Shown here: positions 1-50,945 of the stretch, in pieces | How the letters are laid out: every line of letters starts with the position of its first letter | Numbering within the stretch: the first letter of the stretch is position 1 | NCBI GenBank assembly: GCA_965214835.1 | Contig: CBDCCK010000002.1 | Coordinates: 896,001-960,000 of the forward strand | DNA: 64,000 bases | From: Nitrosopumilaceae archaeon | GTDB lineage: Archaea; Thermoproteota; Nitrososphaeria; Nitrososphaerales; Nitrosopumilaceae | Direction: 5' to 3' | The notes under the pieces: model-generated | Seen by the model: only the letters and a program-made list of their open reading frames with translations | The model's database searches: none | What the model was told of the DNA's origin: nothing | Program-made: the position numbers and the translations under genes

Positions 1-1011
1 GTTGCATGCTCGCCCATACCGCAGTCTAAAGCCCCCCAGTCTGTTGGGCGTGGACAGGACGGAGCGGCCGGTGATGACTTCGCGCATTCTTTTGGCAGCG
101 GCGTCCTCCTCCTTGTCTCCCGCCTGAACGGCCCCCTTTAGATCATTGAGCCATTCCCACCCATCAAGATTGTACAGCTCGATTCTTTTGAGGAGTTTTT
201 TGGCACGTCCAATCAATCCGTCGTTTAGGACCCTCAGTGCTCCGCCCCGAACCCTGTCGGTCTTCATTCGTGCCATGCCCTTGTGATTTACAACCTCGTA
301 GGGATCGGTATCAACGCCGTCAAGCTCCACGGGAAGGTGTGAGATCACCGTGGCAATGTCGTCATCCAGTACATGAAACTGGAAGCTTCCGGCCTCCCTT
401 TCATAGATTCTTAGCTCCTCTACGAACCGACCGGTTTCGTCGTCAAATGAGTTGGCTTGGTACTCGCCCAGGCCTGCTGCCTTTCTAACATGATCCGCAA
501 TCAGCATGGTTACTGCGGATTCCGTACCTCCCGCAGAGCGCATCGGTCCCGCTATGGAGACGGACAGGTACTCAGTCGAGTCCTTGTTCTTTTTGATCGT
601 GACCTCGCTGATTCCCTGTAACGGGGCTATGGTAACGCCCTCCGTAACAACTGCGAGGCCCACCCGGACTGCAAGATCAAGTCTTTCCTCCAAAGTCGCA
701 TCCTGTGGAAGATACTTTCCACGTGCAATTTCCTCGGACATTATGAGCGCAGACAGCTCCTTTCCGTTGGTTTGGAGAAGATCCCGCAGTGGATCGGAGA
801 TGTCGATGTCGTGCATTTTTGCCACACGATCAGCCAGGTCAAAGGCTATTTTGGGCTCAACCATGCCCGAAGAGTCCACAAGTGTGGACTTGGCATCTGC
901 TGCCCTTTCAAATATTTTGTATGTGTCCTCGGACAGTACAGAGTAGTAGTTCCGGTAATAGTCTGGCATCTTCATGCCCCGAATTCTGTTTAGAGTGGTG
1001 TTGTCTGACAT
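1..1011 (-). CDS. polC: DNA polymerase D large subunit DP2 (5' part; runs off the window start)
   Basis: Absent from the ORF track and translated by hand from the ATG at 1011: MSDNTTLNRIRGMKMPDYY...AVRVGLAVVTEGVTIAPLQGI...AGPMRSAGGTESA...RVRGGALRVLNDG...GGFRLRYGRACN, which are DP2 N-terminal signatures. Confidence 0.95.
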   Translation of the reverse strand, partial: MSDNTTLNRIRGMKMPDYYRNYYSVLSEDTYKIFERAADAKSTLVDSSGMVEPKIAFDLADRVAKMHDIDISDPLRDLLQTNGKELSALIMSEEIARGKYLPQDATLEERLDLAVRVGLAVVTEGVTIAPLQGISEVTIKKNKDSTEYLSVSIAGPMRSAGGTESAVTMLIADHVRKAAGLGEYQANSFDDETGRFVEELRIYEREAGSFQFHVLDDDIATVISHLPVELDGVDTDPYEVVNHKGMARMKTDRVRGGALRVLNDGLIGRAKKLLKRIELYNLDGWEWLNDLKGAVQAGDKEEDAAAKRMREVITGRSVLSTPNRLGGFRLRYGRACN

Positions 1012-3665: not shown

Positions 3666-4133
3666 ATGTGATCAATAAGGATTAATTATTAACCATTCAA
3701 TAGGTCTATAAAATTTTGTTAATAAACAGGGTTGTTAATATTGACTGCCTAGCCCACGCCTAGGGGGTTTTTTATTATTAACAATTTTTTAAAAAAAACT
3801 ACCAAAAATCCCTTGTTTTCATGCCTGGAGTGGAAATAAAGGGGTCAAAATTTGTATATTAACCATGTTAAGGGGTTGTTTAACACCTAGAGTGGAAATA
3901 AAGGGGTCAAAATAACCATTTTTTGTCAATTTTAACACCAGATTAACCTATCTGTCAAGCCAAAAAACCACCCACACACCTTTATTTCCACTCCTTTTTT
4001 TTTCAAATTTTTTTTAAGAAACTAAATCTAACCAAAAATAATTAATCATATACTGAATTTGAGTTGTTGTTTGATTCTATACAGTTCTAGGAGAGGTATT
4101 GTGGTAACTAATGGAAATAAAGGTGTGTGGGTG
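3666..4133. other. Replication origin oriC with four ORB-like repeats and AT-rich unwinding tracts
   Basis: CT(G/A)GAGTGGAAATAAAGGGGTCAAAA at 3825-3850 and 3887-3912, an inverted copy at 3969-3994, and TGGAAATAAAGGTGTGTGGGTG at 4112-4133. The region has A/T runs and lies directly upstream of cdc6. Confidence 0.9.
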
Positions 4134-5338
4134 TGTCTGGTGACCCGGTTGATAGGTTATTGGATGCTGCAGAAGGTGGCAAGTCCCTTATCAAAAACAG
4201 GGAAATTTTACATTTTGACTATATTCCAAACATAATTTTACATAGGGATGTTGAACAGGAGCGAGTCACACAATCATTACTTCCAATCCTAAAACAATCA
4301 AGGCCATCAAACCTTCTTGTATATGGAAAGCCGGGAACCGGCAAGACCCTTGTCGTAAGAAAGGTGTTGTTAAAAATCCAAGAAAGGGTGGAAAAAAGCA
4401 ACTTTCCAATCAAACTAGCATATGCAAACTCCAAGGTGGAAACCACCCTTTATGGATTGTTGGTTAGTTTGGGCAGGCAGTTGGGCCTGTCAGACAGGGA
4501 TCTACCATCAACAGGCCTGTCAATCAGTGAAGTCTTCAAACGTCTGCTGGCCAACATAAATAAAAACAAAACAAACGCGGTTTTTGTGATAGATGAAATT
4601 GACTATCTTGCTCACTTGGTCACCAAAACGGGAAAGGACATACTTTACCAACTAACCCGCGCAAACGAGAACCTAAAATCAGGCACGCTGACCATAATAG
4701 GCATCTCAAATGATCTCACCTTCAAAGAACGCCTGGATGCAAGGGTTATCAGCAGCCTCGGGGAAGAGGAGATTGTATTTACAAACTATTCGGTAGGCCA
4801 ACTTCGAAAAATCCTGGAAGGAAGGGTAAACGAGGCCTTTGAGAACTCCTCGATCGAAGAACCGGCATTGAATCTATGTGCTGCCATGGCAGGCCGCGAG
4901 CACGGTGACGCCAGACGGGCAATCGATCTACTCAGGGTTGCGGCTGAAACCGCCGAACGCCAACAATCCGACAAAATCACCGAACAACACATCCGTGACG
5001 CCTCCCAAAAAATCGAGGAAGACAAGGAGACGACGGCCCTCAAATCATACCCACTACATGAAAAACTCCTAATCATTGCCGTGATGCGGACTGCAGGATC
5101 ATCCACGGGCGGGATTTACACTGCATACAAGGCATTATGCAAGACAGTAAGGCAAAAGGAGCTAACCCAAAGACGGGTCACACAAATGCTCAGCGAGATA
5201 GAACTGTCCGGAATCATCTCGGGAAGACTAGTTCACCAGGGAATCCACGGCAGAACAAAAAAATTCAAGCTTACCATTCCACCAGAAATGGTAAAAGAGA
5301 CACTCAAAAACGATCTGTCCTTGGAGGACATCATCTAG
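4127..5338 (+). CDS. cdc6: Orc1/Cdc6 replication initiator
   Basis: Walker A YGKPGTGKT, Walker B VIDEID, GDARRAIDLL and a C-terminal wHTH. Confidence 0.97.
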   Translation: MGVSGDPVDRLLDAAEGGKSLIKNREILHFDYIPNIILHRDVEQERVTQSLLPILKQSRPSNLLVYGKPGTGKTLVVRKVLLKIQERVEKSNFPIKLAYANSKVETTLYGLLVSLGRQLGLSDRDLPSTGLSISEVFKRLLANINKNKTNAVFVIDEIDYLAHLVTKTGKDILYQLTRANENLKSGTLTIIGISNDLTFKERLDARVISSLGEEEIVFTNYSVGQLRKILEGRVNEAFENSSIEEPALNLCAAMAGREHGDARRAIDLLRVAAETAERQQSDKITEQHIRDASQKIEEDKETTALKSYPLHEKLLIIAVMRTAGSSTGGIYTAYKALCKTVRQKELTQRRVTQMLSEIELSGIISGRLVHQGIHGRTKKFKLTIPPEMVKETLKNDLSLEDII

Positions 5339-9264: not shown

Positions 9265-9765
9265 CTATCTCGTAATCTTCTGTCTGTCTTTAATGTATTT
9301 TACAAACGGCTCCCAGTCCACCTTCATGAACTTGGTGGGATCCTTTGCCGGATACTTTACCCAGTCCTGGACTATGGAGTATTGATGCCGCTCAATTTTA
9401 CCGCCCCTTTGATACTCCACCGACAGGACACTGCCCCACGTCTTGTCCTCGTGGCCGATATCCAAGATGTCATCAAACCCCAAAACCACGTTTTTTTCAT
9501 TTTCTACATCCTCCCCAAAGTTCTCCTCGTCATATCCGTCATGAATGTTCATGACGTTTTTTGACTTGATAAGCATCACGACCTGTCTTGAGACGACTGC
9601 CTGCCACCACCTCATCTTTGCATCCGTCTTGTGGATGAAGGCCAAATGCCTGTCAGTCAGCACCAGCATGCCCTCCCTTCCCCCGATCGAGAGAAACTTC
9701 TTGGGCTCGCGCCACACCGATACTATGTGCGCCTGAATTTTCTCACCAAAATCCACATTTACCAT
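9265..9765 (-). CDS. Hypothetical protein (possible PH-like fold)
   Basis: 166 aa ORF immediately upstream of cbiE; GMLVLTDRHLAF is a bacterial PH-domain-like strand. Confidence 0.65.
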   Translation of the reverse strand: MVNVDFGEKIQAHIVSVWREPKKFLSIGGREGMLVLTDRHLAFIHKTDAKMRWWQAVVSRQVVMLIKSKNVMNIHDGYDEENFGEDVENEKNVVLGFDDILDIGHEDKTWGSVLSVEYQRGGKIERHQYSIVQDWVKYPAKDPTKFMKVDWEPFVKYIKDRQKITR

Positions 9766-9831
9766 TCACGGGCCCGCTCGTTAAAAACAATGTTGTCAGG
9801 GCTTTTATTTAACCCAGAAGGAGGGATCCTC

Positions 9832-11397
9832 ATGCGGAAACTCGTCCTCCTTGCGATTTTCAGCGCCTTTCTCGTGGGATTTTCTGGATCCAGCCACGGA
9901 CAGGCCCAGGACGTCGTCGTATTGCATACCCCGTCTGGAGAACTCGTCATAGAGTTTTTCCACGAGGATGCGCCCAACCACGTCGATAACTTCATCAGGC
10001 TGGCCGGCGAGGGGTTCTATGATCGCACCGTGTTTCACAGGATAATCTCTGGATTCATGATCCAGGGGGGCGATCCGCAAACAAAACCCGGGACATATGA
10101 TAGTACCACACAGTGGGGAACGGGAAATCCCGGATATCACATTGACGCGGAATTCAACGATATCAGTCATGTCAGGGGAATCGTCTCGATGGCAAGATCA
10201 AGTGATCCAGACAGTGCGGGCTCGCAGTTCTTTATAGTTCATAGGGATTCTGCCTTTCTAGATGGCAGCTATACCGTGTTTGGCCGGCTGGTAACGGCGG
10301 AGAGCTTTGAGACGCTTGACAGGATTGCGCAATTGGAAACCCCCCTCACACAAGGTACTGCATCACAAAACGAGCCGGGGGCCACCATTCCTGTGGACCG
10401 GGAAGGCGCCCAAATCCTCCGGGCCGAGGTACTGCCCAAATCCGAGGTCGATGATCTGATTGAGCTTGGAGAACCTGCACGCCTGGAAAACAACATCACT
10501 CTTCCTGACAACCAGGTATACTCCAACAAAAAACTGGGCGTAGAGTTCCTGGCACCTGTTGGATGGCTGCTACAGGAACCCCAAAAATCCAGGCCGGACG
10601 TTCCTGACATCGTGGCAGTAACACAGGGAACCGAGGGAATCAACCCCTCCATCTCAGTAACAATATCGTACTCTGGCGGCCAGTCACTGGACGACAAAAT
10701 AAGCGAGCGCAAGCAATCCATTCGACCGGCACTGGACTCTGGTGATCTGGAGTTGGTATCTGAGGAAAAAACCGATCTTTATGGCCGTGAAAGCTTTGTG
10801 CTGCTGGCAGACGGAACGTTTGATGACGGCGAGACCGCCGTAAATGTAAGGTTCAACGAGGTCACATTTCTTGAAAATGAAAAATTCTACGCACTAACAT
10901 ATACTGCCTCAGAAGGCGACTATGGATCCCACCTGGACGAGTTTGATCAGGCCGTAGAGACGTTCAGGACGCTTGAGGCAGAGGAGCAAACCCAAGCCAG
11001 CGCCGACGGCGGCCAGGACGGAGGGTGTCTTGTTGCAACTGCAGCATATGGCTCGGAGATGGCGCCGCAGGTTCAACTCCTCCGGGAAATCCGTGACAAC
11101 GCGGTGCTGAACACCCAGTCCGGCTCTGCATTCATGGCCGGATTCAGCCAGTTGTACTATTTGTTCTCCCCCACGGTTGCCGACTGGGAGCGGCAAAACC
11201 CCGCCTTCAAGGAGGCAGTAAGGATAGCAATTACACCACTGCTTTCCACCCTTGCGATTCTGAGCCATGTCGATATCGGCTCTGAGCACGAAATACTGGG
11301 CTATGGCCTAGGCGTTATTGCAATCAACGTCGGAATGTACCTAGTCGCGCCAGCGATGATCATCCGCAGGATTCTCAGAAAATATAATGGCGGCTAA
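9832..11397 (+). CDS. Secreted cyclophilin-type PPIase + PsbP-like domain + CFI-box-CTERM anchor
   Basis: Signal peptide from MRKLVLLA; FHRIISGFMIQGGDP and SAGSQFFI motifs; C-terminal GGCLVATAAYGSEMAPQVQLLREIRD followed by a TM helix. Confidence 0.9.
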   Translation: MRKLVLLAIFSAFLVGFSGSSHGQAQDVVVLHTPSGELVIEFFHEDAPNHVDNFIRLAGEGFYDRTVFHRIISGFMIQGGDPQTKPGTYDSTTQWGTGNPGYHIDAEFNDISHVRGIVSMARSSDPDSAGSQFFIVHRDSAFLDGSYTVFGRLVTAESFETLDRIAQLETPLTQGTASQNEPGATIPVDREGAQILRAEVLPKSEVDDLIELGEPARLENNITLPDNQVYSNKKLGVEFLAPVGWLLQEPQKSRPDVPDIVAVTQGTEGINPSISVTISYSGGQSLDDKISERKQSIRPALDSGDLELVSEEKTDLYGRESFVLLADGTFDDGETAVNVRFNEVTFLENEKFYALTYTASEGDYGSHLDEFDQAVETFRTLEAEEQTQASADGGQDGGCLVATAAYGSEMAPQVQLLREIRDNAVLNTQSGSAFMAGFSQLYYLFSPTVADWERQNPAFKEAVRIAITPLLSTLAILSHVDIGSEHEILGYGLGVIAINVGMYLVAPAMIIRRILRKYNGG

Positions 11398-11646
11398 GTC
11401 TATGATCATTCCTGGCGTACAGGGCCACCTCCTGACTGGTCGGACATGAATTTTGATGCAACCGTGATTTTCATGCCTGGCCGGCAAGAGGGCGTGACTT
11501 TGTGCCACTCCGATTCACACCGGCAAAGTGTGCCATAGTACGCACAATTGAAAATCGAACACTTTTGTGTAAAAACAGGCAACTATGTCAAATTATGATC
11601 GATTATTTTATGTTCATACTACGGCTCTACTGCGCTAGGCGGCCTA

Positions 11647-12102
11647 TCAGTCAGATTGTGCATGATCGCCAAATTTCAGAAGCTCCCTTGTTTTTACAAC
11701 GAAAATGTCTGCCATTTCTACCAGTTTCTTTCCCTGAGTTTCGGATATGGTTCCTGCTTGGCCGTACAAGGATTCATTTCGGCGCAATCTCGCCTTCCTA
11801 AATGCCCGAATGACATCTTGTGGTATTTTTGCAAAATATACCACCTCGATAAACGATACCACCGCCATGTGGTGTTCGTGACTCTTTGGCCTGTATCCAC
11901 GTGAAAACATCAATGCCCTGCCGGCCTGTAGCATCGCATTGTAGGCCGCATTGTGGGCCCAGCCCCATTCTTTAATCTCCGCCATTTTTTTAGCAGAGGC
12001 GACATCACTTATTGCAATTTGTACCTCGTTTTTGACCTGCTCGGTGTCGGCAGAGCCAAACTTTTCAACCAAATTCTTTCTTAATAGATCGCTTAAATTC
12101 AT
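11647..12102 (-). CDS. HEPN-domain protein
   Basis: AYNAMLQAGRAL...SHEHH...RLRRNESLY; overlaps the upstream MNT gene. Confidence 0.85.
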   Translation of the reverse strand: MNLSDLLRKNLVEKFGSADTEQVKNEVQIAISDVASAKKMAEIKEWGWAHNAAYNAMLQAGRALMFSRGYRPKSHEHHMAVVSFIEVVYFAKIPQDVIRAFRKARLRRNESLYGQAGTISETQGKKLVEMADIFVVKTRELLKFGDHAQSD

Positions 12103-12670
12103 TCTTGTCTCCTGCCGTCATTATTATGGGAGTCTTTAAAATTTCCCTTATCAGTGGAATCCGCTCGCTTGATTTTTGCCTGAATTCCTTTTCAGTCCAT
12201 ATTGAAATGTTGATCTCACGCCCGATATTTTTTTCAATTTTTGCAATTGAATACAGCACTGAATCCTCATTGACGTTGTCGCCGACTACCAGCATGTCCA
12301 CATCGCTTGTGGCCGTTTCCGTACCCCTTGCCACCGATCCGTATATGGCAGCGTACTTGATCCCCTCGCTGCAGTCATTACCCATCCCCTCACGTATCAC
12401 CTGTCCCACACTTTCGGTCTTGAGGAATATTCTTTTAAGATCATCCCAGATCGGAGACCTTCTCTCGGAACGGTACAGTACCATGTTTCCTTCCCTTCTG
12501 CTTTTCAGGAGACCGAGTGACTGCAGGTTGCTCAGTTCTTTTTGTGCCTGAACCGGGGAAACACCGACAACTCTTGACAGCTTGCGTATGTGGTACTCTG
12601 CATCTGGATTCAACAGAACCTGTTCAAGTATCCTTACCCTAGACTTTGATGTAAAGAGTCTCTCTAGCAT
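12065..12670 (-). CDS. wHTH-fused minimal nucleotidyltransferase (MNT)
   Basis: Likely start MLERLFTSKSRV at 12670; N-terminal wHTH, then YGSVARG...SDVDMLVV. Confidence 0.88.
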   Translation of the reverse strand: MLERLFTSKSRVRILEQVLLNPDAEYHIRKLSRVVGVSPVQAQKELSNLQSLGLLKSRREGNMVLYRSERRSPIWDDLKRIFLKTESVGQVIREGMGNDCSEGIKYAAIYGSVARGTETATSDVDMLVVGDNVNEDSVLYSIAKIEKNIGREINISIWTEKEFRQKSSERIPLIREILKTPIIMTAGDKNEFKRSIKKEFG

Positions 12671-12709
12671 TGTAAACCAAACATATACAAATGTAAATAA
12701 AAAGTTTAC
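12671..12709. promoter_or_regulatory. Putative promoter/operator of the MNT-HEPN operon
   Basis: AT-rich stretch with two imperfect palindromes 21 bp apart: TGTAAA-ccaaaca-TATACA (12671-12689) and TGTAAA-taaaaag-TTTAC (12692-12709). Confidence 0.45.
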
Positions 12710-12719
12710 GAAAGGATCT

Positions 12720-14126
12720 CCGCAGGCGATGTCAATCCACCCTCCACAGGCTTCATAGACCTCTTTTGCCTTGATTTTGGGCTCGCCGTCCCTAGTCTGC
12801 GTTGCCTGCTCTGCACCGTACTGCCTGGCGCTGTTGGAGTGTTGCTGCCAGAGCCACTTGATGTCCTCTTCTGACTGGCCGTGTGAGAGGCCGCCGCCCT
12901 CGATGATTTTTCTGGCCTCCTTGAGCAGGAGGTTCAATATCCTAGATTTCTCCCTTGGCTCGGTAAGCTGGGCGAGCAGCTGCTTGTTGTCGGTATCGCC
13001 CCCGAATATCTCTTCAAACCTGAACAGGGCGATCCGGCACAGATCCGCTTTTTTCATCTTTGGGAGCTCCGGCAGGGCATTGTATGAAAATAGTAGCCTG
13101 CCGGTAAACGTCATTGAATAGCTGTCCTGCCCTTGTGGTGCACGTAGATGTTCTCATCGCCCATGACTGGTGACTTTCACACTCGTGGATTTTAGGGCGC
13201 CCTCCGGTAAATCATAGAAGATATTGGCGTGCTTGCCGCCCAGATTCACGGCGGCAAAGCGGTCATGCTCAAGGGCCTGCCAGGGGATTGAGCTTACGGC
13301 GCTTCTGCCAAGGATTGCCTTGAGGACTTTTAGCAAGGTGCTCTTGCCGTCATGCCTGTCGCCCTGCAATAGGCAGTACTTGGGGACGCTTACCCTATTC
13401 TGCAGCAAGACGGAGGCGCAGAACTCAGAGGGCAGCCCTAGTGTCCGGATCCGGCATTATTTCCTCTAGGAATTTCAGGAATTTGGTAGACTCGCCTGCA
13501 TCCGGGACGAAATTGACGTCAAGCTGCCTGGTACTCAAAAACGGATTGTCGGGATCCTCATCTATCTTTCTGCCGGATTCTAGGTGGACGAACTCGTTCT
13601 TACAGTTCAGCAGATTGGGATCAGAATCAAAGTCCAGCCTTGAGGCCAGCGTCCTGTCCTTGATGTGTGAGATGATCTCGGAGCGCTCGTGGTTTGTCCG
13701 TGTCGGCCACGTCTGGGTTATGGCTGCCTTGAGCTCTGCCATCTCCCTTCCTGCATAGTGATAAACGCGGTTCTGTCTCAAGTAAACCTCACCGGTCTCC
13801 TTGAGTGTGATGATGTCGCGCTTTTTTCCCGCTAGGATCTGCATTGCCGTCTTGTACGGGTCAGGCCTCTCCTCCTCTGCGGATTCCTTGGGCTTCTTTT
13901 TGGTTTTCTTCTGCTGCTCCTCCAGCTGCAGGGCTGAGGCAAGCTTGGAATGTGCCATTACAGTATGTTCTATCTGCATCTTACAGTCTGCGTGTTCTGT
14001 TCTGTCCTCCTCCTTCTTGAGGTTGATCCATTTGCCGTGAGCCAAGCAGTACCGCGCGCCGTCGTCCATCTTAACCGTCCTAGTATACTCCCGGAGGTCA
14101 TGTCCCTTCTTTCTGCAGGAGCTCAA
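12720..14126 (-). pseudogene. Fragmented D5/P4-family primase-helicase (SF3)
   Basis: Three pieces: 13425-14126 (D5_N-like FDSDPNLLNCKN...KFLKFLEEI), 13154-13408 (degenerate Walker A QGDRHDGKSTLL) and about 12720-13114 (FTGRLLFSYNALP...RIALFRF). Confidence 0.8.
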
Positions 14127-14800
14127 TGCCTCGGATCATTCGTCCTTGGCATAGTCGCCATCGCAGGTGTTGCACCGGATCATCTCGATCCTCTTGCAGT
14201 CCTCACTTGACAGGAACCAAGACCTCCTGATAATAGTTGATTTTGCAGCCCCGTCGTTTGTGGCGATCCATGAGCAGGTCACCACTTAGCAGCCGATACG
14301 AGGCCGGGAACGTCCTGTTACAACCATGGCAGAAAACATAGGTTATTGATGGCCTCAAGAGTCCTCCCCCTCACCGTTTTTGGGCTCTGCATCACGTACA
14401 GAGCCAAGCCGCCTACCTGTAAGGTCGCAGATGTGGTTATCGCCTCGCCACCAGGCAACGGTCCTGTGTAATCTTCGAGACCTGAAATATGGACTTCTCT
14501 GAAATTATCATGCCTGAATCCTTCTTCTCTCAACGATGTCTGTTCCCCGTATGTCAAAAAGTCCCCTGGGTGAGAACCTGAACTGTAGCAACCGGGGCAG
14601 TTGGCTTTCTGCCGTCACCGCCTTTTCTTTGGATCGTCAGTTCGCCGAGTTTGAGGTTTCCCCTATCCGTGATTGAGGCCCCACCCATGCAACATTCTAT
14701 GACTTTGTCAATTGGCAAGACTGCCTACCTGTACGGGTGGGTTCTGTGTAATCTTCGCGATATGGATCTTCTCTGAATTGAGCTCAACCTGTTCTCTTAT

Positions 14801-14911
14801 CAGCTAAGTGAAAAGTACCCTGAAATCGAGCAAAAACAAAAACTGGGCACGAGGCGCAACGCCTCAGCAGCAAGGTAAAACAGCAAATCTCATTTACATT
14901 TCACTTAGCTG
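14801..14911. mobile_element. 111-bp MITE, family A, copy 1
   Basis: TIR CAGCTAAGTGAAA...TTTCACTTAGCTG with a 6-bp TSD TCTTAT; near-identical copy at 48996. Confidence 0.9.
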
Positions 14912-15090
14912 TCTTATGGGTCATGTAACGCTGCCGGGACGTGAGAGAATGCAATCATTCTGTATTCCTTTGTGGCCTACACTGCTTCCTAAAACAGGCA
15001 AAATACCTTTCAAATCATATGACTGAACTGATATCGGAGATGACCCGCACAGACAAATGCATTCCAAGACGATTCAAGAGTGGAACGAGC

Positions 15091-15345
15091 TCATTTCAAA
15101 TATTCGAGCAAAATCACCCTGAGTTGCTCTCTGCTCTTATCATGAAGAGGCTCGCCCGGATCAGTTCCAATAATGTTCCGCAACTTTCCTATCATAAATA
15201 TGTCCTCGACCATATTCTCAACAAGATGCTCACGTATTCTTTGCCGATCCCTGTTCTTGATCGCTGGAAGAAGTTCTCTGTATGATTCCATCTTCTTGTT
15301 CATGAAATCCAAAAAAACACCAGTTGCTTTGTCTTCTTCTTTCAT
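15091..15345 (-). CDS. Hypothetical protein (84 aa)
   Basis: Helical ORF starting 2 nt after the nuclease stop; no recognisable motif. Confidence 0.5.
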   Translation of the reverse strand: MKEEDKATGVFLDFMNKKMESYRELLPAIKNRDRQRIREHLVENMVEDIFMIGKLRNIIGTDPGEPLHDKSREQLRVILLEYLK

Positions 15346-15347
15346 GT

Positions 15348-15880
15348 CTACAGCACACTCTGTCTTCCACTCTGCCTTTTCTCTGTAACCGGCACCTGCA
15401 TGATGTTGCTGATCTGAGGCAGGTTTGGAAGCCTCCCGTCAAAATAGTCCATAATCGTGTAAATCTGAATCTTCGGATGTTCTGTACCTAGCGGCGTCTG
15501 GGTCATGCCGCCGGATGCGGCCTCCTTTTTCATTTCGGATGTGGGTTCTCTTACGCAGACAAATATGCCAAACCCCGCACCTTCGCACTCGACCGTTCCC
15601 TTGAGATCACGCACCATTGCAGGGCCTATCTGATTTCCTCCCTTTACGGAGACTATCACTTTCTCGTATTTGGGTTGTCCCCTAGAACCAGATCCTACAT
15701 GGATGTATCCCCTTCCGTCGATTCCCTTGTCCCTACCCTTCTTCTGGTTTGGCATTATGCCGTCTATCCTTGTGGCGGCCCACACCTCAAACTGGTACTT
15801 GTCACGTTTTGCCAGATCCTTTGCTGATTCGAGCGTAATCGGCATTCCCTTCACATCTGGCCTTACTCCGAATGCACTCT
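15348..15880 (-). pseudogene. Mrr-like restriction endonuclease domain, probably the C-terminal remnant of an MTase-REase fusion
   Basis: YQFEVWA...GRDKGIDGR...VIVSVKGG...MVRDLKGTV...GIFV; the 5' part is replaced by unrelated sequence next to a transposon end. Confidence 0.7.
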
Positions 15881-16094
15881 TCATGCGACGGTGCACTGGA
15901 CGGCCAGACCCCGGCAGAATCGGCCCTGATAAGCGTGGACGGCACAAACAAGTGGATGACGATAATCCAGAACGCCTCACTAAGTAAAAATTCAGCCTAG
16001 TCGTAAAAATCGAATCTGAAGAAGATCCATATTTCAGGTCTCGAAGATTACACAGAACCCAGGCATGTGGGATCCGAAAAGTAGTTCACCCCCC

Positions 16095-17060
16095 CTATCT
16101 GACATGATATTCCTCCCTGGTCTGCCCATCTATGACCGTTTCGCCCGCAGGGGGCATCTTGCGCTCATATGCCTGCGCCGGCGTCTCCCGGTTCTCCCGG
16201 TCAAGGGACATGTGGGGCCTGTCGTAGTTGTACCATTTCATGAACAGATCCATGGGATCGCTTGTTCTCATCATGATATCCTCAAACTCGTGCAGCTTGC
16301 GCTGTATCTCGCCGTGCAGCCTCTCGACCTTGCCGTTTGTCTGCGGGTGGCGCACCCCGGCAAGGACCTGCCGTATGCCTAGGGCCTCCAGGCTCTCCTC
16401 GAACTCGCTGTGCCCCCTCTTTGCGCCCTGTTTTTCGTTTGCATAGAACTGGCTTCCGTGGTCCGTCATTATGGAGGCGGGCCTGCCGTGCTTCTGCATG
16501 GCCCCGTCAAGCACCTTGAGGGCGTTTTCTGTAGTCGCGTTGTCAAATATGCCGTATCCGGTCACGAACCGGGATGCGTCGTCCTCGTAGCACAAAAACC
16601 ACCTGCCATCGTGCATTCCGCCGTGTATCTGCTTCCAATCGGTGTGCCACATGGAGTTGGAATACTCCATCTCCCAGCGCAGCCACCTGCGTTTTCTGCG
16701 CCCGTTGGGCTCGTCTCTGGCCATCCCTTCGTCCTTTAGCATGCCGTGCAGTGTATGTCGCGGGATATTAATCCCGGTCTTTTCCCTTATGAGATCCTGC
16801 AGGGATGCCGCACCCAGGTGCTCGGAGGGTCGCACCGAGAGGACCGCCGAGTGCTCCCTGCGCCCGGGCATGCCGTTCTGGGGCCTTCCCATCCGTGCGG
16901 GGTGCGATATGTCCTGTATGGTGCCTGACCTGTGCCGGGCCCACAGTTTCTGTACCCAGCGGACCGAGACGTTCATGGATTCGGCTATCTGGGCGTTTGT
17001 CATGTCTCCCTTTTGCTTTTGGCGTACTATCCACTGTACGCCTGACTTGTTTAGATTCAT
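16095..17060 (-). CDS. IS481-family transposase (copy A)
   Basis: HTH plus WHTDWK, EDDASR, TDHGSQF and PQTNGKVERLH. IRs TCCRAAAAGTAGTTCACCCC near 16073 and 17187-17206. Confidence 0.9.
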   Translation of the reverse strand: MNLNKSGVQWIVRQKQKGDMTNAQIAESMNVSVRWVQKLWARHRSGTIQDISHPARMGRPQNGMPGRREHSAVLSVRPSEHLGAASLQDLIREKTGINIPRHTLHGMLKDEGMARDEPNGRRKRRWLRWEMEYSNSMWHTDWKQIHGGMHDGRWFLCYEDDASRFVTGYGIFDNATTENALKVLDGAMQKHGRPASIMTDHGSQFYANEKQGAKRGHSEFEESLEALGIRQVLAGVRHPQTNGKVERLHGEIQRKLHEFEDIMMRTSDPMDLFMKWYNYDRPHMSLDRENRETPAQAYERKMPPAGETVIDGQTREEYHVR

Positions 17061-17209
17061 GTTGTTGGGGCGTGCAAGACTGACGTATTTACCAGCCCTT
17101 TTGCGCCAGACCCACACACCCTTGTTTCCAGTGGCATGCATGAGGCCCGTGCATCTGATCCTTACCGACTTTACACCCTCGGAGAAGGGGTGAACTACTT
17201 TTTGGATTA

Positions 17210-18177
17210 TAGATCGCACCATCACCGGTGTCCTCCTCCATCCATTTTGGGTTGCTTTTCCTGATCGCATCTGTGGCCTCCCTGTCGGAGAATGCTCGCA
17301 GCGGCGTCTCGTAGTTGTCTATATCCAGCGACCAGTGCAGCCTGTCCTCGTTGTAGTAGCCTATGTATGCAGACAGGCTCTCGTGGTTCCATATCTCCTC
17401 CTCGATGCTCCGATGGAAGCGTTCCAGCTTGCCGTTGGTCTGTGGGTGGTACGGCCTGGAGTTTATCAGCTCGATTCCGCAGTTGAGCAGCTCCTCCTCA
17501 AAGGCAGTGGGCCTCCACACGCCCTTGGGCGGACTCTTCTTTTTCTTTGGATCCGAGCGCGCCCCGACAAAGCACTTGCCGTTGTCTGATAAAATGGTTG
17601 CAGGCGCGCCGAACTGGGCCACGGCCTGCCGCAGGACCGCCACGACGTTCTCCGAGGTGGCCTCCCTGAACAGGCCCGCACCGGTCACGCACCGGGACGA
17701 ATCGTCCAGAAACGTGACTAGGTTGAGCCCTACAAAGCGCGGATCCTTCATGGTATGCCAGTCCACGTGCCACATGGCGTTGGAGTACCTGCGCTCAAAG
17801 CGGACGTATTTCCGGGGTCTGGATTTTGCAGGCGACGGCGTCACCAGCCCGTGCTCACTCATTATCCTGTATACCTCGCAGTAGCTTATATCGTGTTGTC
17901 TTCGCAGCCTCCTGGCCGTATGAACAACGCCTGCTGCACTGTGCTTGTGCTCCTCTAGGACGGCGCGCACGACACTGTCGGGAACCGGGGCGTTCCTTTT
18001 TCTTCCCGGCCTGAGCGGCACGTGGTGCGCACCACCCGTCTTCCTGAACCGGGCGTACATCCGCTGGACGTGTCTTTTTGTGACGCCTATCTCGGCGGCC
18101 ACCTCCGAGGGCCTTCGTCCCTTGGCACACTGCGTTACTGCGTATCTGATCTGCCTTGCCTTGAGCCTTGCAACCAT
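17210..18177 (-). CDS. IS481-family transposase (copy B; 3' end cut by copy A)
   Basis: WHVDWH, LDDSSR, SDNG and PQTNGKLERFH. The IR at 18233-18253 has only a partial partner (TAGATCGCAC) at 17210-17219. Confidence 0.88.
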
Positions 18178-18321
18178 CGGCTTTCTTGATCGGTAAAGCC
18201 TAAAGTAATCCTTTGCAATCCTCTTCAAATTAGTGCGATCTAATTTTCGTACAATAGAGATGTTGGGCATTGGCATGATTTTAGTTCAATTCAATATATT
18301 ACAGAAGGCAAAGAATGACAA

Positions 18322-18412
18322 CGATAGCGTTAGGGTACCGGTATGCCCTGCCGAGCTCAGACCTCGGTGGCGCCGACACACCATAGGGGTTCGAATCCCC
18401 TCGCTATCGCTA
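18322..18412 (+). tRNA. Atypical type-II tRNA(-like) gene with anticodon CAG
   Basis: Acceptor (C)GATAGCG/CGCTATC(G); D arm AGGGTA-CCGGTA-TGCCCT; anticodon arm CCGAG-CTCAGAC-CTCGG; 17-nt variable region; T arm AGGGG-TTCGAAT-CCCCT. A TATA-like AATATATTA lies at about 18293-18301. Confidence 0.8.
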
Positions 18413-18466
18413 TAATCTACTGGAGATGTTTCTTATAAAAAAGGTTGGGTTTGGGCGGTTTGTAAG

Positions 18467-20237
18467 GTACGAGGTCACCTACCCCCATCAATCAGGCACG
18501 AATTAGATGCATGATTGTGATCTTCGTGCCTAGCTGGCAGCCCCCGTCAATGATCTTGTCCCCTTCAAGCGCAATCCATGGACTGCAGGCCTGAATTTTT
18601 TCACGGATTGTGTAGATCTGCCGTACGAGGTCACCTACCCCTAGATTATTTTGGCTACCTCAGCCACGATGGACTTGTCCTGCAGCTTCCACGTCGACGT
18701 GCATGTGTTGAACCATCCATACCTGTTCATCCAGACCAGGCCGCCCTTGATCTGACCGCTTATCTTGCCCTGCAGTACGACGGGGCGCAGCGCCCGCTCT
18801 GCGTTATTGTTGGTGGGCTCTACGCCCTCGTATTCCAAGAACGCAAACAGGCCCGGCAGGGCATTGTACATCCTCTTGACAAGGGACTTTAGCGATTCAT
18901 CCTACGTATCCCTGTATCCGAACAGGATGTTGCGCATCATGGTCTCAAACAGCCGGCGCAGCTCCGGCGAGTGCCGTCCCATCAGTCCGTCGGCCGCCCT
19001 TATCCCCGTCCTCTCCTCGAGCTCCCGGAGATCCTTCTCGGACAGCTTGTCCCAGCCCTCAAGACACTCCTTGGCATCCTTGAACAGCTGCTGCATCTGC
19101 CGGTACAGGACTCCTGCAAACAGCAGGGCGCCCTTTTTCTGCGAGCCATACAGGAGGAACCGCAGCTCGTGCGCCCAGCACCGCTGGAGCCTTCCCAGCA
19201 GCCCGAACCTCTTGTATGCGGGATATCCGTCCGATGTGACGATGCCCCCGTACCCGCCCATGTACTGGTCCAGGATCCGGGCGCTCCTGGTGTCTGCATA
19301 TATCATGAACACGCCCACCGCCGACAGCATGGCCCACGCCCATCCCAGCCTGCCTGCCAGGTTGATCCCCGTCTCGTCTATGCAGACGGTCTTTGAGCTT
19401 CTTACCTCCTCTGCGATGGCCTCGGCAGGCGCCTTTGCGGCGTCGCAGACGCGTCCCATGCTGTTGATTGCAGTTGACTTTGACATGTGCACGCCCAGGA
19501 TATCTGACATGACGCCCCGGATCCTGTTGTATGGGACGCCCTCGCTGCGCAGCTTTGTGACGGCTGTGACTATACTCGTGTCGTAGCTGCCGCGTCGGGG
19601 CAGGTCGTTGGGGGCAGTATGTATGGTGCCGCATTTCGGGCACACTGCCCTCTGTGTCTCGTGGCGCGTCTCAGTCGTCTTTATCTTGAATCCTATCATG
19701 TCGCGCACCTGCGGCTTTTTCATGATCTCTGTGGTGGTGCCGCAACTGCACTCCGGCGCCCGTCCCCCCGGAAAGCAGTGTTTCTGTACCCTGGCGGGCC
19801 GGTGGGTGCGCGATACGCCCTTGTGGCCCTTCTGGCCGCCGGGCTTTTTCCTGTCCCCCTTGGCGCCGTCATTTCCTGCTGCAGCATCGGACCTGGCCCT
19901 CTCCCTTCTCCTCTGCGCCTTTTGCCTCTTCCACTCCAGCGAGTCTGCCGACGGGGGCGAGTTCTCGTTCTCGTAGTATCGGAGCCTGTTGCCCTGCTCC
20001 CTGATGGTCTTGTTTAGCTTTTCGATTATCTTGTCCTTCTTTTCGATTATCTTGTCACGCTCCTTGAGGTCCTTTTTTAGATTCCTTATCGTCTCCGTGG
20101 GCGATGCTGCAGATGCCTCGATCTTGCAGCATGTGAGGAGTTGACCTTTCATAATGCCTAGTCTACGCGATCATAGTATAAGGATCAGGTACAGTCAGTA
20201 ATGTTTACCCTACTGTGAGGGGTAGGTGACCTCATAC
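18467..20237 (-). mobile_element. IS66-family element with duplicated end; transposase 18641-20152 has one in-frame TAG
   Basis: IR GTACGAGGTCACCTACCCC at 18467 and again at 18623, partner at 20219-20237, 8-bp TSD TTTGTAAG. Motifs NSPPS, PGGQKGHKG, IDETG, SDGYPAY, QRCWAH and TNNNAERALR. Confidence 0.92.
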
Positions 20238-20240
20238 TTT

Positions 20241-20330
20241 GTAAGAGTTTACCTCTCCCCAGAGATACGGCGTGGCAGGCGTGATCATGAAGGCTCCGAC
20301 TAGCAGTGTAGCCTGGGGGTAAACTCTTAC
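20241..20330. mobile_element. ~90-bp MITE, family B (GTAA ends), copy 1
   Basis: TIR GTAAGAGTTTACC...GGTAAACTCTTAC; homologous copy at 49223-49314. Confidence 0.85.
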
Positions 20331-20486
20331 GGGCAGTTTACCATTAACGGTTAACGCCGGAATCGCCCCAGATCCTGCCAGAACCGAGCGCAGCAGGGCG
20401 GACTTGGGCATCTTGGCCTTGTGTGCAGCCGCGTCCAGAGCGTCCCACTCCTTGAGGATCAGCGGCATGCTTGCCCTTTTTGCCAT
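20331..20486 (-). pseudogene. Ribbon-helix-helix (CopG-like) protein, interrupted by MITE B
   Basis: MAKRASMPLILKEWDALDAAAHKAKMPKSALLRSVL has an RHH pattern. Confidence 0.5.
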
Positions 20487-20771
20487 CTTGGGTTAACGGT
20501 TAACCCTGCCCAGCTGGGTCTTGAGCTCCAGGTTCTCCCTGAGCACGTCGTCAATCCGGGCCTCAAGCCTGCCTATCTTCTGGGATGGGAATAGGCCCTC
20601 CTGCAGCACGTCGGTTAGCCGTTTACCCTTCTTTTTTGTCTAGCTGCATGGCTGCCGCCTAACCCATCAGAGCCCCTGAAAACCATGCGACGTCATCCGG
20701 ACCGGGGCGTGCAGGCGGGGCAGAAGTTCAGAAAAACGGAGTCCGCGGGCGGAACTACGCGACAGCCGCGG

Positions 20772-22121
20772 TCACCAGACATCGTCTACCTCGTCGAGAA
20801 CCCTGTACTCCTTTTCCACATCCTTTCTCATGAACTTTAGCCTTGAAATGTCCCTGCCAAACAGGACGTCTGCGGTCCAGTCCAGGAAGACCCTAAAGCG
20901 CTTGTCCCAGGTCGGAATTTTTGAAAGATAGACGTTTCTCCACAGAATCCAGGCAAGCAGCCCGTGGATGTTCATGCCCAAAAACAGCGCGATGCCGGTT
21001 CTTTTCCCGATGATGGCCATCTGGCCCCTAGACTTGTACTCGAACCTTTTCTTGCTTCTGTTTTCAAGCAGGGCCTGCAGGTTGTATGCCGCGACCTTGG
21101 CCTGGGCCTCGGCAATCTGCGCCGTTGGCGGAAACGGCCTCCTGCTCTCCGGATCCAAAAACAGCGCACAGTCCCCGATCGCAAAGACGCCCGGAAAGTC
21201 CCTCGCCTCCAAACTATCATCAACGATAATTTTTCCCTTTTCAGTCTTGAACAGCGAGCGCTTGATCGTGTTGACCGGGGTCACGCCTGCAGTCCAGATC
21301 ACGGTCCTGGTCCGTATTGATTCGGCCGGGCCGCCTGCCGCCCCGTCCCCCACAGGATCCAGTCCCTTGACCACCACCTCCTCGCCGTCAAAGCTTGTCA
21401 CCGCAGTCCTCAGCCTGATCTCGATTCCCTGCTCGGTCAGCTTGTCCTGGGCAAACGCAGCAAGGCTTTCAGAAAACCCGGGCAGTATTGCGGGCAGGGC
21501 CTCCAGAATGACGACCCGGATGTCCTTTGCCGAGATGTTCCGGTAATGCCTGGTGACGTCCACCAGCAGGCCCATCAACTCGCCTGCCGTCTCGACTCCG
21601 GCAAACCCTCCCCCCACCACAACAAAGGTGAGCAGGCTCTTCTTCAGGATCGGATCGGTCTCGTTTTCTGCCTGCTCAAGCATGTCAATCACCCTGTTTC
21701 TGACCAGGACCGCGTCATTGAGGGTCTTCATCTGATAGGCGTTTTTTTCCAAATCACTCATTCCAAAAAAATTGGTTTCGCTGCCCAACGCAACAACCAG
21801 ATAATCGTAATGGATCGAAACCCCGCGCCTGTCCCCGCTTCCCCACAGGTTCACGATTTTTCCATAGGGATCAATGTTCTTCACCCTGCCTTCATAAAAT
21901 ACCGCCTTTTGCGTAATCGTCCTGATTGGCATGACGATGTGCCTAGTCTCAATCATGCCAGATGCCACCTGGGGCAGCATCGGCGTGAACAGCAGGAAGT
22001 TATCCTCACTGACCAAAACAATCTCGACCCCGGCTTCGTCTCGAAGGCGACCCTCCAGCTGCCTAGTGCACTCTACCCCTGCAAACCCCCCGCCTAGAAC
22101 CACTATACGCTTTTTCCTCAT
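20772..22121 (-). CDS. Type II NADH dehydrogenase-like FAD oxidoreductase
   Basis: Two Rossmann motifs (LGGGFAG, VGGGFAGVE), WTAGV, AIGD and PTAQIA. Confidence 0.92.
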   Translation of the reverse strand: MRKKRIVVLGGGFAGVECTRQLEGRLRDEAGVEIVLVSEDNFLLFTPMLPQVASGMIETRHIVMPIRTITQKAVFYEGRVKNIDPYGKIVNLWGSGDRRGVSIHYDYLVVALGSETNFFGMSDLEKNAYQMKTLNDAVLVRNRVIDMLEQAENETDPILKKSLLTFVVVGGGFAGVETAGELMGLLVDVTRHYRNISAKDIRVVILEALPAILPGFSESLAAFAQDKLTEQGIEIRLRTAVTSFDGEEVVVKGLDPVGDGAAGGPAESIRTRTVIWTAGVTPVNTIKRSLFKTEKGKIIVDDSLEARDFPGVFAIGDCALFLDPESRRPFPPTAQIAEAQAKVAAYNLQALLENRSKKRFEYKSRGQMAIIGKRTGIALFLGMNIHGLLAWILWRNVYLSKIPTWDKRFRVFLDWTADVLFGRDISRLKFMRKDVEKEYRVLDEVDDVW

Positions 22122-25855: not shown

Positions 25856-26199
25856 CATTTCGTGCTAGGCCACCTGCCCCTTCAGCCAGGCACGAATTAG
25901 CATGCATGACCATGGTTTTCATGTATGCCAGCAGGGTCCAACATACGATCAACATACGCGATGTCGGTGCAAGACCCGCACTCGCCGGGGCACGTAAACG
26001 ATGTCAGGCATTGCCGGATGAGGCATTCCACGTTCTGGGGCGATGTAGTCAACTCATAAAAAAAGTGGATAGTTTTGACAATTGCTTTTGGCCCAAGGGT
26101 CTAGGATCAGGCAAACCGTACGCGCATGCATGGAAAAACAGACAGAATTCGCGACATCGGGGGCAGATTCCTGCCAGGCAAGGCACCCATGCCTTTGCA

Positions 26200-28320: not shown

Positions 28321-28529
28321 TGGAAATAATGTCCGCTATCCATTGATGTCTCCCTCCATCCTTTTGGGGTCAGATTTCCTGATCGTATCCCTAGTCGTTT
28401 TATCCGAGAACGCCATGATGGGCGTCTGGCGGTTGGCTATGTCCAACCCAAAGTGCAGCCTGCGTTCGTTATACTCCACGTATACAGACAGGCTCTCATA
28501 GTGGTGTATTTCCTTCTCGATGGGGGGGG

Positions 28530-28660
28530 GGGGTTGTCGCCTAATTCCACTTGTTTGACCCAACCTGCACGTTTTTCTGAATTTCCACTCCTTTTACACG
28601 CCTGATCCATATGGCAGCTCAATGGTTTTCAGGAATTCTGATGAATTAGGCGACAACCCC
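28530..28660. mobile_element. ~130-bp MITE, family C, copy 1
   Basis: TIR GGGGTTGTCGCCTAATTC...GAATTAGGCGACAACCCC; TSD TCTCGATGG with an expanded G run on the left. Confidence 0.88.
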
Positions 28661-28790
28661 TCTCGATGGTACCGTGGAGTCGCTTCAGCTTGCCGTTGGT
28701 CTGCGGATGGTACGGTCTGGAGTTTATCAACCCGATTCCGCGATCCAAAAGCTCGGCCTCAAAGGCCGTCGGCTACCACATACCCCGAGG

Positions 28791-29984
28791 GGGGTTGTCC
28801 AATTTTTTTCCGCAGGCTGCCAATTTGCCCCCGATATAGGCAGTCTCAGACGGCAATATAGAGCACTTGGCGGCCCCGGACGGCCAGAACGGCGCATACA
28901 GCAACGCAAATATCCATGCAGGCCATACCTTACGGTAGTGTTGCGGTCCAACAGTACGGGATTTGTGATGATTTACACCGTAAGGTTGTAGCACAACACG
29001 CGAGCGAACAGCTCTACAGTGATGGTTCCGTCCAGCTTTGCACGCAGGACGGATCCAGCCCTTTCCTTCATTACCGAGAACAGGGACTCTGCCTGGCTCC
29101 TCTTGTGATAGGCCTGCCAGAACTCGTCTGGCCTGTCACGCAGCCACTGCAGCATCCTGGCCCGGGCGCCAAACCCGCGTGGCTTTTCATGCCCCTTTGC
29201 CGGCTTTATGACAGGTCCGCGGCCGCTCTTTGCAATCAGCTCGCAGTTTTTGTACGAGTCGTATGCCGAATCCAGCGCCACGATTCCGTATCCGCCCTTG
29301 GGGATGCGGCTCATCATGCGGGCAAACTCCGGCGAGTCCCCCGACGTGCCCGGCGTGGCCTCAAATGACAGTATCTTGCCCCCGATTGCAGCAATTGCGT
29401 GCAGTTTTGCAAAGTCGTGTCCGGTCACCTCCCCATGTTTTGCGTGGCTCCAGCTCTTGTACTTGCGGAGGCCGAATCCCGTCGAGTCGCCGTGCAGGTC
29501 CGCTATGCGCTCGCCTTCGGACATGGCCAGTACGACCTCGTCCATAAAGTCCTTGCCCATTCTCCAGAGCATGGTCATCCTGTTGTGCAGCGTCGACTTG
29601 GAGAGCGTACGACTCAGGCCGCATCTCCTGAGATCGTCCGGGTTTGACTCCAGGTGCGTGACCATCCTCCTGTAGGACAGGCGATTCTCGATTCTGAGGA
29701 TCGCAATGCGTATGGCAGACCACGCAAGGCCGGCATCGATTCCCGTTTCGGCGGCCATCTTCTTGGCCACCCTGCGTACGATCTTTCCCAGGTTCCTCCT
29801 TGTCCTCTTCTTGCGGGAGCTCTCCTGCCTGCGCTTTTGCTCGTAAAGGCGGTTATAGTCCGTGTCCTTCCTGTTGTTGCTCATTGGGATATCCAGGATC
29901 GGCAGATCAAAATCATTTTCGGCGCCGTGCGCTCATGATCTATAAGCTTGTCGGTCGTTTTGCGGAAATTTTTTGGACAACCCC
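28791..29984 (-). mobile_element. IS4/IS5-superfamily element; transposase ORF 28973-29884
   Basis: TIR GGGGTTGTCCAA...TTGGACAACCCC, 9-bp TSD ACCCCGAGG, DDE motifs GDSTGF, LDSAYDS and YHKRSQAESLFS. Confidence 0.9.
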
Positions 29985-30457
29985 ACCCCGAGGCACCGTC
30001 TTTTTGTTCCTGTCCCCGTTAAAGCACATGTCGTTGTCTGAGAGTATCGTGGCAGGCGTGCCAAACCTACCTATGACATCCCTGAGCACGGCTACCGCAT
30101 TCTCAGAGGTGGCCTCGGTGAAGACCTGTGCTGCCACCATGCACCTAGAAGCATCATCCAGATACGTGGCCAGCTTGAGCCCCCTGAACCTAGGATCCTT
30201 CATCTCATGCCAGCCTGCGTGCCACATGGCATTAGAATAGATACGTTCATACTGCAGCCACTTCTTTTGGCATGACTTGGCATCTGATGCAGCAACGAGT
30301 CCCTGCTCCTTCATCATCCGATATACGCGATTGTAGCTTATAGCGTGACCTGCATCCTGCAGGCGCATGGCCGTACGCATCACGCCTATGTGCTTGAGTG
30401 TATGTCAAGGACTGCCTGCACCTAGTCTGACGGGGGTTGTTGCAAAAAAAAATTCAT

Positions 30458-49222: not shown

Positions 49223-49314
49223 GTAAGAGCTTACCTCTCCCCCGAGATACGGCGTAGCAGGCGTGATCATGGGAGCTCTGGCCAGCAGTGTAGCCTAGTG
49301 GGGTAAACTCTTGC
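49223..49314. mobile_element. MITE family B, copy 2
   Basis: GTAAGAGCTTACC...GGTAAACTCTTGC with 9-bp TSD GACCATTGA. Confidence 0.88.
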
Positions 49315-49448
49315 GACCATTGAAAAGCGCGACAAGACCATCAGGGAGCAGGGCAACAGGCTCAGATACTACGAGAACGAGAACTCGCCCCCGTCGGCGG
49401 ACTCGCTGGCGTGGAAGGAGCAAAAGGCGCAGAGGAGAAAGGAAAGGG

Positions 49449-50701: not shown

Positions 50702-50945
50702 AGGGCCCAGTCCGATGCTGCAGCCGTGGAGGACGGCGCCAAGGGGGACGGGAAAGAGCCCGGCGGCCAAAAGGGCCACAAGGGCACATCACATATCCAC
50801 CGGCCCACCAGGGTACAGAAACACTGCTTTCCGGGTGGACGGGCACCAGTGTGCAAGTGCGGCACCACCACGGAGATCGCAAAAAGACCGCAGGTGCGCG
50901 ACATGATGGGGTTTGAGATCGTACAACTTCAGGTCCTTTTTATAC

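Follow-up and report, generated by a model that had tools for sequence, protein, structure and literature searches.

A CAG-anticodon tRNA gene of non-canonical build between insertion sequences in a Nitrosopumilaceae-like archaeal chromosome

We analyzed a 64-kb stretch of archaeal DNA, hereafter the window, and found that its only tRNA gene, which carries the anticodon CAG, is a genuine tRNA gene of non-canonical build. Our tentative preference, held with slightly less than even confidence, is that this gene is an accessory passenger associated with mobile DNA and similar to tRNASec and to the allo-tRNAs, rather than the working tRNA-Leu(CAG) of the host, and that it does little decoding. The window belongs to an archaeal chromosome near a likely replication origin and encodes orc1/cdc6, both PolD subunits, PCNA, and TyrRS. 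The best named relatives of its CDC48, from Nitrosopumilus, Nitrosarchaeum, and Nitrosopumilaceae, are about 80% identical to it, and other relatives of this protein reach 84 to 91%. From these similarities, we assign the host to the Nitrososphaeria (thaumarchaeal) and reject a methanogen or another euryarchaeon; it is Nitrosopumilaceae-like, with a G+C content of about 52%. The orc1/cdc6 gene (4127-5338) is adjacent to that of the PolD small subunit, and directly upstream of it, at 3817-4133, we also observed four origin-recognition-box-like repeats (core GAGTGGAAATAAAGGGGT; three direct and one inverted) in a region of 38% G+C that is likely a replication origin.

The gene was detected by two methods. 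ARAGORN, whose use had been proposed in an earlier note on this DNA, reported a single tRNA in the 64-kb window, a tRNA-Leu(cag) at 18323-18410 on the plus strand. The Rfam tRNA model RF00005 matched 18323-18409 over its full length (model positions 1 to 71 of 71) with 37.8 bits, compared to a gathering score of 29; the E-value was 2.8e-6 in a search of 801 nt and 3.3e-5 in a search of 9.6 kb. When Rfam was run on the whole window at the gathering score, no match was listed, and the gene was probably lost to the speed filters. Two ordinary tRNAs scored in the same way gave 55.7 and 64.8 bits. In addition, the folding of the 91-nt stretch was beaten by only 3 of 200 shuffled sequences (z of -2.6).

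In the 7/5 reading, the gene occupies 18323-18409 on the plus strand, with G18409 as the discriminator and no encoded CCA. The acceptor stem has 7 bp (GAUAGCG/CGCUAUC, with G1-C72) and is followed by U8 and U9. The D arm (18332-18349) consists of a 4-bp stem, AGGG/CCCU, that can be extended to 6 bp, and the loop UACCGGUAUG. After G26 comes the anticodon arm, in which the stem CCGAG/CUCGG closes the loop CUCAGAC (with U33 and A37; CAG at 18358-18360). The T arm, AGGGG-UUCGAAU-CCCCU, contains five Watson-Crick pairs. The earlier note had described perfectly paired acceptor, anticodon, and T stems, and this description held: the plain cloverleaf has 21 pairs, every one of them Watson-Crick, and both ARAGORN and RF00005 recognize the structure. 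The discriminator was also read correctly there as a G followed by CTA. The variable region (18368-18384) is 17 nt long and forms at best a marginal helix, in which UGG/CCA is joined by one G-C pair across a C.A mismatch, with the loop CCGACA. It is left unpaired in the ARAGORN drawing and yields -1.6 kcal/mol when folded alone. We considered an intron as the cause of the long variable region and rejected it, as inspection of the sequence revealed no bulge-helix-bulge motif.

The same sequence can be drawn in a second form. An eighth acceptor pair, C18322-G18409, gives an 8/5 reading in which C18410 becomes the discriminator. The D stem reaches 6 bp through U14-G21 and A15-U20b, leaving the loop CCGGUA, which holds G18 and G19, and a possible G26-U44 pair extends the anticodon stem to 6 bp. 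The earlier note had pointed out the longer acceptor stem and the 6-bp D stem around CCGGTA, and both can indeed be formed. The fold with all of these extensions has a predicted energy of -33.0 to -34.8 kcal/mol, compared to -26.4 to -28.2 kcal/mol for the plain cloverleaf, while the unconstrained optimum of the sequence, at -37.6 kcal/mol, is not a cloverleaf. The extras of the 8/5 form are single pairs that could have arisen by chance, with a probability of a few per cent for all four by a rough estimate, and this counts against the accessory reading. A 9/4 branch cannot form, with A18321 lying opposite C18410.

The bases that permit the longer D stem are themselves unusual. U14 and G21 replace the invariant A14 and A21 and can pair with each other, whereas the gene retains U8, G18, G19, and U33, together with the T loop and a possible A15-U48 pair. 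As a control, we used 152 tRNAs called by ARAGORN in 119 fetched loci; these loci are nearly all bacterial and were gathered by a motif match, and tRNA position 14 was read by proxy as sequence position 14. A14 was present in 149 of the 152 tRNAs; two of the exceptions are apparently shifted in their start by one base, and the third is an aberrant sequence (L086). T8 was present in 151 of the 152, and all 13 ordinary Leu tRNAs of the control carry A73. The U in place of A14, which the earlier note had singled out, is thus very unusual. The U-G pair formed by the two altered invariant bases adjoins an A-U pair, and the bases listed above are kept; as far as a single sequence can tell, this pattern suggests an alternative D arm more than random decay. 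The aberrant control sequence lies at 287-384 (minus strand) of a contig from an uncultured Actinomycetes MAG; ARAGORN calls it a "tRNA-Leu(cag)" of 98 nt, but its acceptor stem is poorly paired, the Rfam tRNA model does not match it at the gathering score, and it bears no evident relation to the tRNA of the window.

These features bear on one of the alternatives, namely, that an ordinary class-II tRNA gene without any special origin has been copied and has decayed into a functionless pseudogene. The lost helix of the variable arm, with its C.A mismatch, the modest Rfam score, and the many broken genes nearby would all agree with decay. However, decay should strike the other helices too, and all of them are fully paired; furthermore, the other invariant bases that we checked are intact, and the changes at A14 and A21 complement each other. 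We give the pseudogene explanation little probability.

Whether such a tRNA could be charged with leucine can be judged by known identity rules. According to PMC9976931, Leu identity depends critically on A73 in all systems tested (E. coli, yeast, human, and the archaeon H. volcanii), and the H. volcanii identity set also includes the variable-arm loop bases A47c and G47d, plus U47h. The same paper states that changing A73 to G73 swaps Leu for Ser identity, that Ser identity rests mainly on the variable arm, and that G73 and, second to it, G30-C40 are strong determinants for the bacterial-type and archaeal SerRS. These rules bear out the statement of the earlier note that A73 is the Leu identity element and that G73, together with a long variable arm, suits SerRS. 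Among the Leu marks, our tRNA possesses the CAG anticodon, but it lacks A73 (having G18409 instead) and has no variable-arm helix that would present A47c/G47d and U47h. The Ser marks are likewise incomplete. G73 is present in the 7/5 reading and gives way to C18410 in the 8/5 reading, the G30-C40 pair is replaced by A18354-U18364 (A30-U40), the anticodon reads a Leu codon instead of a Ser codon, and the variable region has the right length, 17 nt, with a marginal helix. Given G73, G1-C72, A30-U40, and the barely helical variable arm, LeuRS should reject this tRNA, and SerRS would be the favored enzyme, for which the tRNA would be a mediocre substrate at best.

A tRNA with a CAG anticodon and Ser-type marks raises the question of what CUG means in the host. 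In 17 native genes of the window, CTG accounts for 252 of 551 Leu codons (46%), or about 4.1% of the codons overall, and 16 mobile genes use it for 180 of their 361 Leu codons. The CDC48 gene uses CTG for 32 of its 57 Leu codons. We aligned CDC48 with 116 of 120 retrieved homologues, after dropping two that were identical to the query and two outside the range of 650 to 760 amino acids. At the 32 CTG sites, the mean fraction of Leu among the homologues was 0.84 and that of Ser was 0.00, and the remaining Leu codons gave the same values. The earlier note had entertained a recoding of CUG to Ser, and these data refute it, since CUG is the commonest Leu codon and is aligned with Leu, never with Ser, in the CDC48 homologues. 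For the same reason, in the reading that we prefer, the CAG tRNA cannot be decoding much.

The lineage provides a point of comparison for CUG decoding. CTG makes up a fraction of 0.045 of the Leu codons in N. maritimus (PMC6000648, supplementary file 7), the only thaumarchaeon in Table S3 of that study, and one tRNA for CTG is given among the 44 tRNAs of this species (PMC6000648, supplementary file 6). The share of 0.46 in our host is about 10 times as high. The demand for CUG decoding has thus shifted about 10-fold within the wider lineage, and the host needs far more of it than N. maritimus does. This single CTG-reading tRNA of N. maritimus leads us to expect that the lineage inherited a canonical Leu-CAG gene vertically. 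The accessory reading assumes such a separate, canonical tRNA-Leu(CAG) in the host genome, which is one of its weaknesses.

The usage of CUG also weighs on the possibility that the gene encodes an active, Ser-accepting CUG decoder, which would cause low-level Leu-to-Ser mistranslation without recoding. G73, the class-II-length variable region, and G1-C72 fit a Ser-type identity, and U33, a purine at position 37, the T loop, and G18 G19 are kept. Moreover, Ser insertion in E. coli by allo-tRNAs that carry sense anticodons is reported in PMC5389517. On the other hand, with CUG at 4.1% of all codons and 46% of the Leu codons, and kept as Leu, any appreciable activity would be very costly. In addition, the tRNA has A30-U40 where SerRS prefers G30-C40, and its variable arm, the main basis of Ser identity, is nearly unpaired. 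The 8/5 form would have C as the discriminator, and a 13-bp branch is normally not accepted by elongation factors (PMC5389517). We consider an active mistranslator quite unlikely, only a little less so than a pseudogene.

We next turn to the position of the gene. It lies in an islet of 221 nt (18243-18463) between two IS ends, with flanks of 33% and 37% G+C, and no other copy of the islet is present within the 64-kb window. The IS insertions begin 80 nt upstream and 55 nt downstream of the tRNA and leave its short flanks intact. On the left is an IS481 element (element B; 17210-18242, minus strand), whose transposase frame (17089-18276; 395 amino acids; identified with NCBIfam and Pfam) is open and whose terminal inverted repeat of 10 nt, TAGATCGCAC, is found at 17210-17219 and 18233-18242. 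It abuts a second IS481 element (element A; 16072-17207, minus strand) with 21-nt inverted repeats and an open transposase frame. On the right is an IS66 element (18464-20240, minus strand), with one end duplicated (18464-18485 and 18623-18642) and the other at 20218-20240. The two copies of the duplicated end stand in direct orientation, 156 nt apart, and share 19 identical nucleotides, which suggests that one IS66 element inserted into the end of an older copy. The tRNA is not part of any of these elements: the inverted repeat of IS481 element B stops at 18242, the IS66 end begins at 18464, and nothing similar adjoins the further copies of these IS in the window.

The nearest native-looking genes are those for a cyclophilin, which ends at 11397, and for an NDH-2-like oxidoreductase (20772-22121), so that the tRNA lies within 9,374 nt of mobile debris (11398-20771). 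The cyclophilin-type isomerase (9631-11397; 588 amino acids) carries a CFI-box-CTERM domain near its C terminus, an unusual combination. The left part of the debris contains a decayed element (11647-14135, minus strand) with a HEPN gene (11647-12117), an MNT-type nucleotidyltransferase, and a gene with D5_N, DUF5906, and primase C-terminal domains that is broken by a single frameshift and a single in-frame stop. The debris further contains an Mrr-like ORF and a fragment of a restriction endonuclease. A segment of 1.6 kb (14460-16061) is bounded by inverted repeats of 34 nt that are 97% complementary (14460-14493 and 16026-16059); it holds an Mrr/PD-(D/E)XK-like ORF (15348-15980) and a third, partial copy of the end (14738-14760). 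Either a transposable element of no assigned class or a pair of MITEs may explain this segment. The earlier note had placed the tRNA among decaying genes. This is true of the primase island further to the left, whereas the three transposase ORFs adjoining the tRNA are open (391, 395, and 416 amino acids), with the IS66 ORF matching its family profile in part. The density of IS in the window is very high overall, with at least 12 transposase ORFs from seven families (IS481, IS66, IS5, IS1595, IS3, ISH3, and IS630) in 64 kb. Several of these are nested or decayed, such as the IS481 copy at 28347-30387, which an IS5 element splits, and the IS66 fragments at 49223-50919 and 25867-25909.

The claim that the tRNA resides in a decayed mobile island therefore stood only with regard to its location. 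The gene is within mobile debris, but it is not shown to be the cargo of an element: we found no att-like repeat of the tRNA beyond 12 nt in the window, where the matches of 11 to 12 nt are at the level of chance, no tRNA fragments in 11300-20900, and no integrase domain in profile searches of the window and the debris. This argues against the accessory reading, as no such feature ties the tRNA to an element. Furthermore, of 68 integrated elements of thaumarchaea, 39 target tRNA genes (PMC6563490). Because such elements usually enter tRNA genes, the tRNA of the window would be expected to be a target rather than cargo.

The debris offers material for another alternative, in which the gene encodes a tRNA-like RNA that serves mobile or defense genes, for example, as a decoy or regulator of an RNase toxin or as a docking site for an integrase. 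The HEPN ORF and the MNT-type nucleotidyltransferase domain (11647-13153) constitute a toxin-antitoxin-like pair 6.2 kb from the tRNA; we observed that the nucleotidyltransferase frame is continuous, without a stop, from a P4/D5-type primase C-terminal remnant and an ArsR-like HTH. Three IS elements adjoin the tRNA, and allo-tRNAs often occur near toxin-antitoxin genes (PMC5389517). However, unrelated debris separates the toxin-antitoxin pair from the tRNA, and no repeat, integrase, or nuclease is linked to the gene. A role of this kind appears very unlikely to us.

The signals around the gene are compatible with its expression. The TATA-like box described in the earlier note is present as the A/T box AATATATTA at 18293-18301 on the plus strand, at -30 to -22, and is a candidate archaeal TATA element; such an A/T run at -35 to -18 occurs at 2.5% of the window positions. 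Downstream, a TTTCTT at 18429-18434 (plus strand), 20 to 25 nt beyond the 3' end, is a weak candidate for an oligo-T terminator. Given an A/T box at the distance of an archaeal TATA element and this downstream TTTCTT, we infer that transcription of the gene is plausible.

A preserved promoter-like box would also be expected of a housekeeping gene, and one alternative holds that this is simply the tRNA-Leu(CAG) of the host, charged with Leu under lineage-specific identity rules and surrounded by debris that gathered at an integration hot spot. Several observations that we took from the gene and its surroundings would fit an essential gene equally well, namely, the 21 of 21 Watson-Crick pairs, the well-spaced A/T box, and the flanks preserved between the IS ends, and they count against the accessory reading to that extent. 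The demand for a CAG tRNA is high with CUG as the major Leu codon, the preference of thaumarchaeal elements for tRNA genes would account for the debris, and this is the sole tRNA in 64 kb. Against this, the gene has G73, while A73 determines Leu identity in all of the systems examined in PMC9976931, one of them archaeal. U14/G21, A10, and the AU-rich acceptor stem also speak against a housekeeping tRNA, as does a variable arm that is nearly without a helix, yet whose loop sequence archaeal LeuRS reads. Finally, the Rfam score is low beside those of ordinary tRNAs. On balance, we regard a housekeeping tRNA-Leu(CAG) as unlikely, the least so of the alternatives set out here.

Relatives of the gene could decide whether its odd fold has been under selection. 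We scanned genomes with the loose pattern ACCGGT-gap-CTCAG-gap-GGTTCRAATCC and obtained at least 119 loci. The CTCAG motif is very common in the D loops of ordinary tRNAs. Among the loci listed, only 3 of the 152 tRNAs hold the pattern within one tRNA, and none of them is related to the tRNA of the window. BLAST searches of the tRNA with its flanks against plasmid and phage collections returned no match, and when the open frame running across the tRNA was used as a protein query, no candidate was returned, although the window's own frame was also absent from the matches. With no homologue recovered in these searches, the odd fold has no support from covariation, which weighs against the accessory reading as well. 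Among the titles listed in literature searches, none concerned an allo-tRNA from archaea or an archaeal tRNA in which the anticodon conflicts with the charging marks.

We nevertheless favor, tentatively, the accessory passenger as the explanation of these data. In this model, the gene would be an accessory gene associated with mobile DNA that corresponds, by its shape and its setting, to the allo-tRNAs of bacteria. Its product would be rejected by LeuRS and, if charged at all, would probably be charged by SerRS. Most likely, the tRNA would be silent, poorly matured, or poorly charged, and the gene would now be a stranded passenger whose helices are still intact. A bolder version of this model, which we view as a long shot, would make the gene the first archaeal member of a class of tRNASec-shaped, allo-tRNA-like molecules, borne by an element, charged by SerRS, and reading the commonest Leu codon. 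Its level would be low or conditional, and it would act as a mistranslator of a selfish or toxic kind or else as bait for the RNases of toxin-antitoxin or defense modules.

tRNAs in which the anticodon and the charging marks are discordant are the raw material of changes in the genetic code, and they have been documented in bacteria, phages, yeasts, nematodes, and organelles. If the proposed reading is true, a Sec-shaped CAG tRNA in an archaeon would allow a direct test of the ways in which a dangerous tRNA is tolerated or silenced by the cell. If the gene instead encodes a working Leu tRNA, the identity rules for Leu in archaea need revision; if it is inert, the gene is an ordinary relic.

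Finally, we compared the tRNA with known systems. With a canonical archaeal tRNA-Leu(CAG), it shares the CAG anticodon, the class-II length, G18 G19, a normal T loop, and a possible A15-U48 pair. It differs in having G73 instead of A73 and U14/G21 instead of A14/A21 and in forming no stable variable helix, so that the earlier note was right in stating that typical archaeal tRNA-Leu features are missing. The yeasts of the CUG clade have a Ser-type tRNA with the Leu anticodon CAG, and CUG is rare and reassigned in these organisms. In contrast to the situation of this yeast tRNA-Ser(CAG), CUG is the commonest Leu codon of our host and is kept as Leu.

The drawable form of the tRNA resembles bacterial tRNASec in that its acceptor stem has 8 bp and its T stem 5 bp, in its two linker bases, in its long variable region, and in having a 6-bp D stem that abuts a 6-bp anticodon stem with no base 26. 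It differs from tRNASec in its anticodon, CAG instead of UCA, and in its D loop, which has 6 nt and is not a tetraloop. tRNASec has the 8/5 arrangement in bacteria and 9/4 in archaea (PMC7609411), and the archaeal form, with its longer D stem, is thus further removed, the ninth pair being impossible here. In Rfam, the general tRNA model was kept as the best match of the clan, ahead of the tRNA-Sec model, and no Sec machinery was seen in the 64-kb window. Another parallel is provided by the nev-tRNAs of nematodes, class-II tRNAs whose anticodons do not match their charging identity and which are eukaryotic, conserved in their clade, and expressed (PMC3333845). Our tRNA, known from its gene, is likewise a class-II tRNA whose anticodon disagrees with its identity marks.

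The closest resemblance is to the bacterial allo-tRNAs. In PMC5389517, these are defined by a 12-bp branch that is split 8/4 or 9/3 and are reported from Clostridia, Proteobacteria, and Acidobacteria only; their acceptor and anticodon stems are lengthened, the D stem and the variable arm are long, position 73 is mostly G or U, and the anticodons are sense anticodons. They often lie close to toxin-antitoxin systems or transposon ORFs, and the authors suspect that many of them play no part in translation. The tRNA of the window is 7/5 or 8/5 in place of the defining 8/4 or 9/3, and its likeness to allo-tRNAs is one of shape and setting. It also differs in its D loop of 6 nt instead of a tetraloop, in its nearly unpaired variable arm, and in its archaeal host. 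In shape, it shares with them a variable region of class-II length, the possibility of a long D stem and of longer acceptor and anticodon stems, and, in the 7/5 reading, G73. The setting is similar as well: a sense anticodon conflicts with the identity marks, transposons lie around the gene, and a toxin-antitoxin pair is located nearby.
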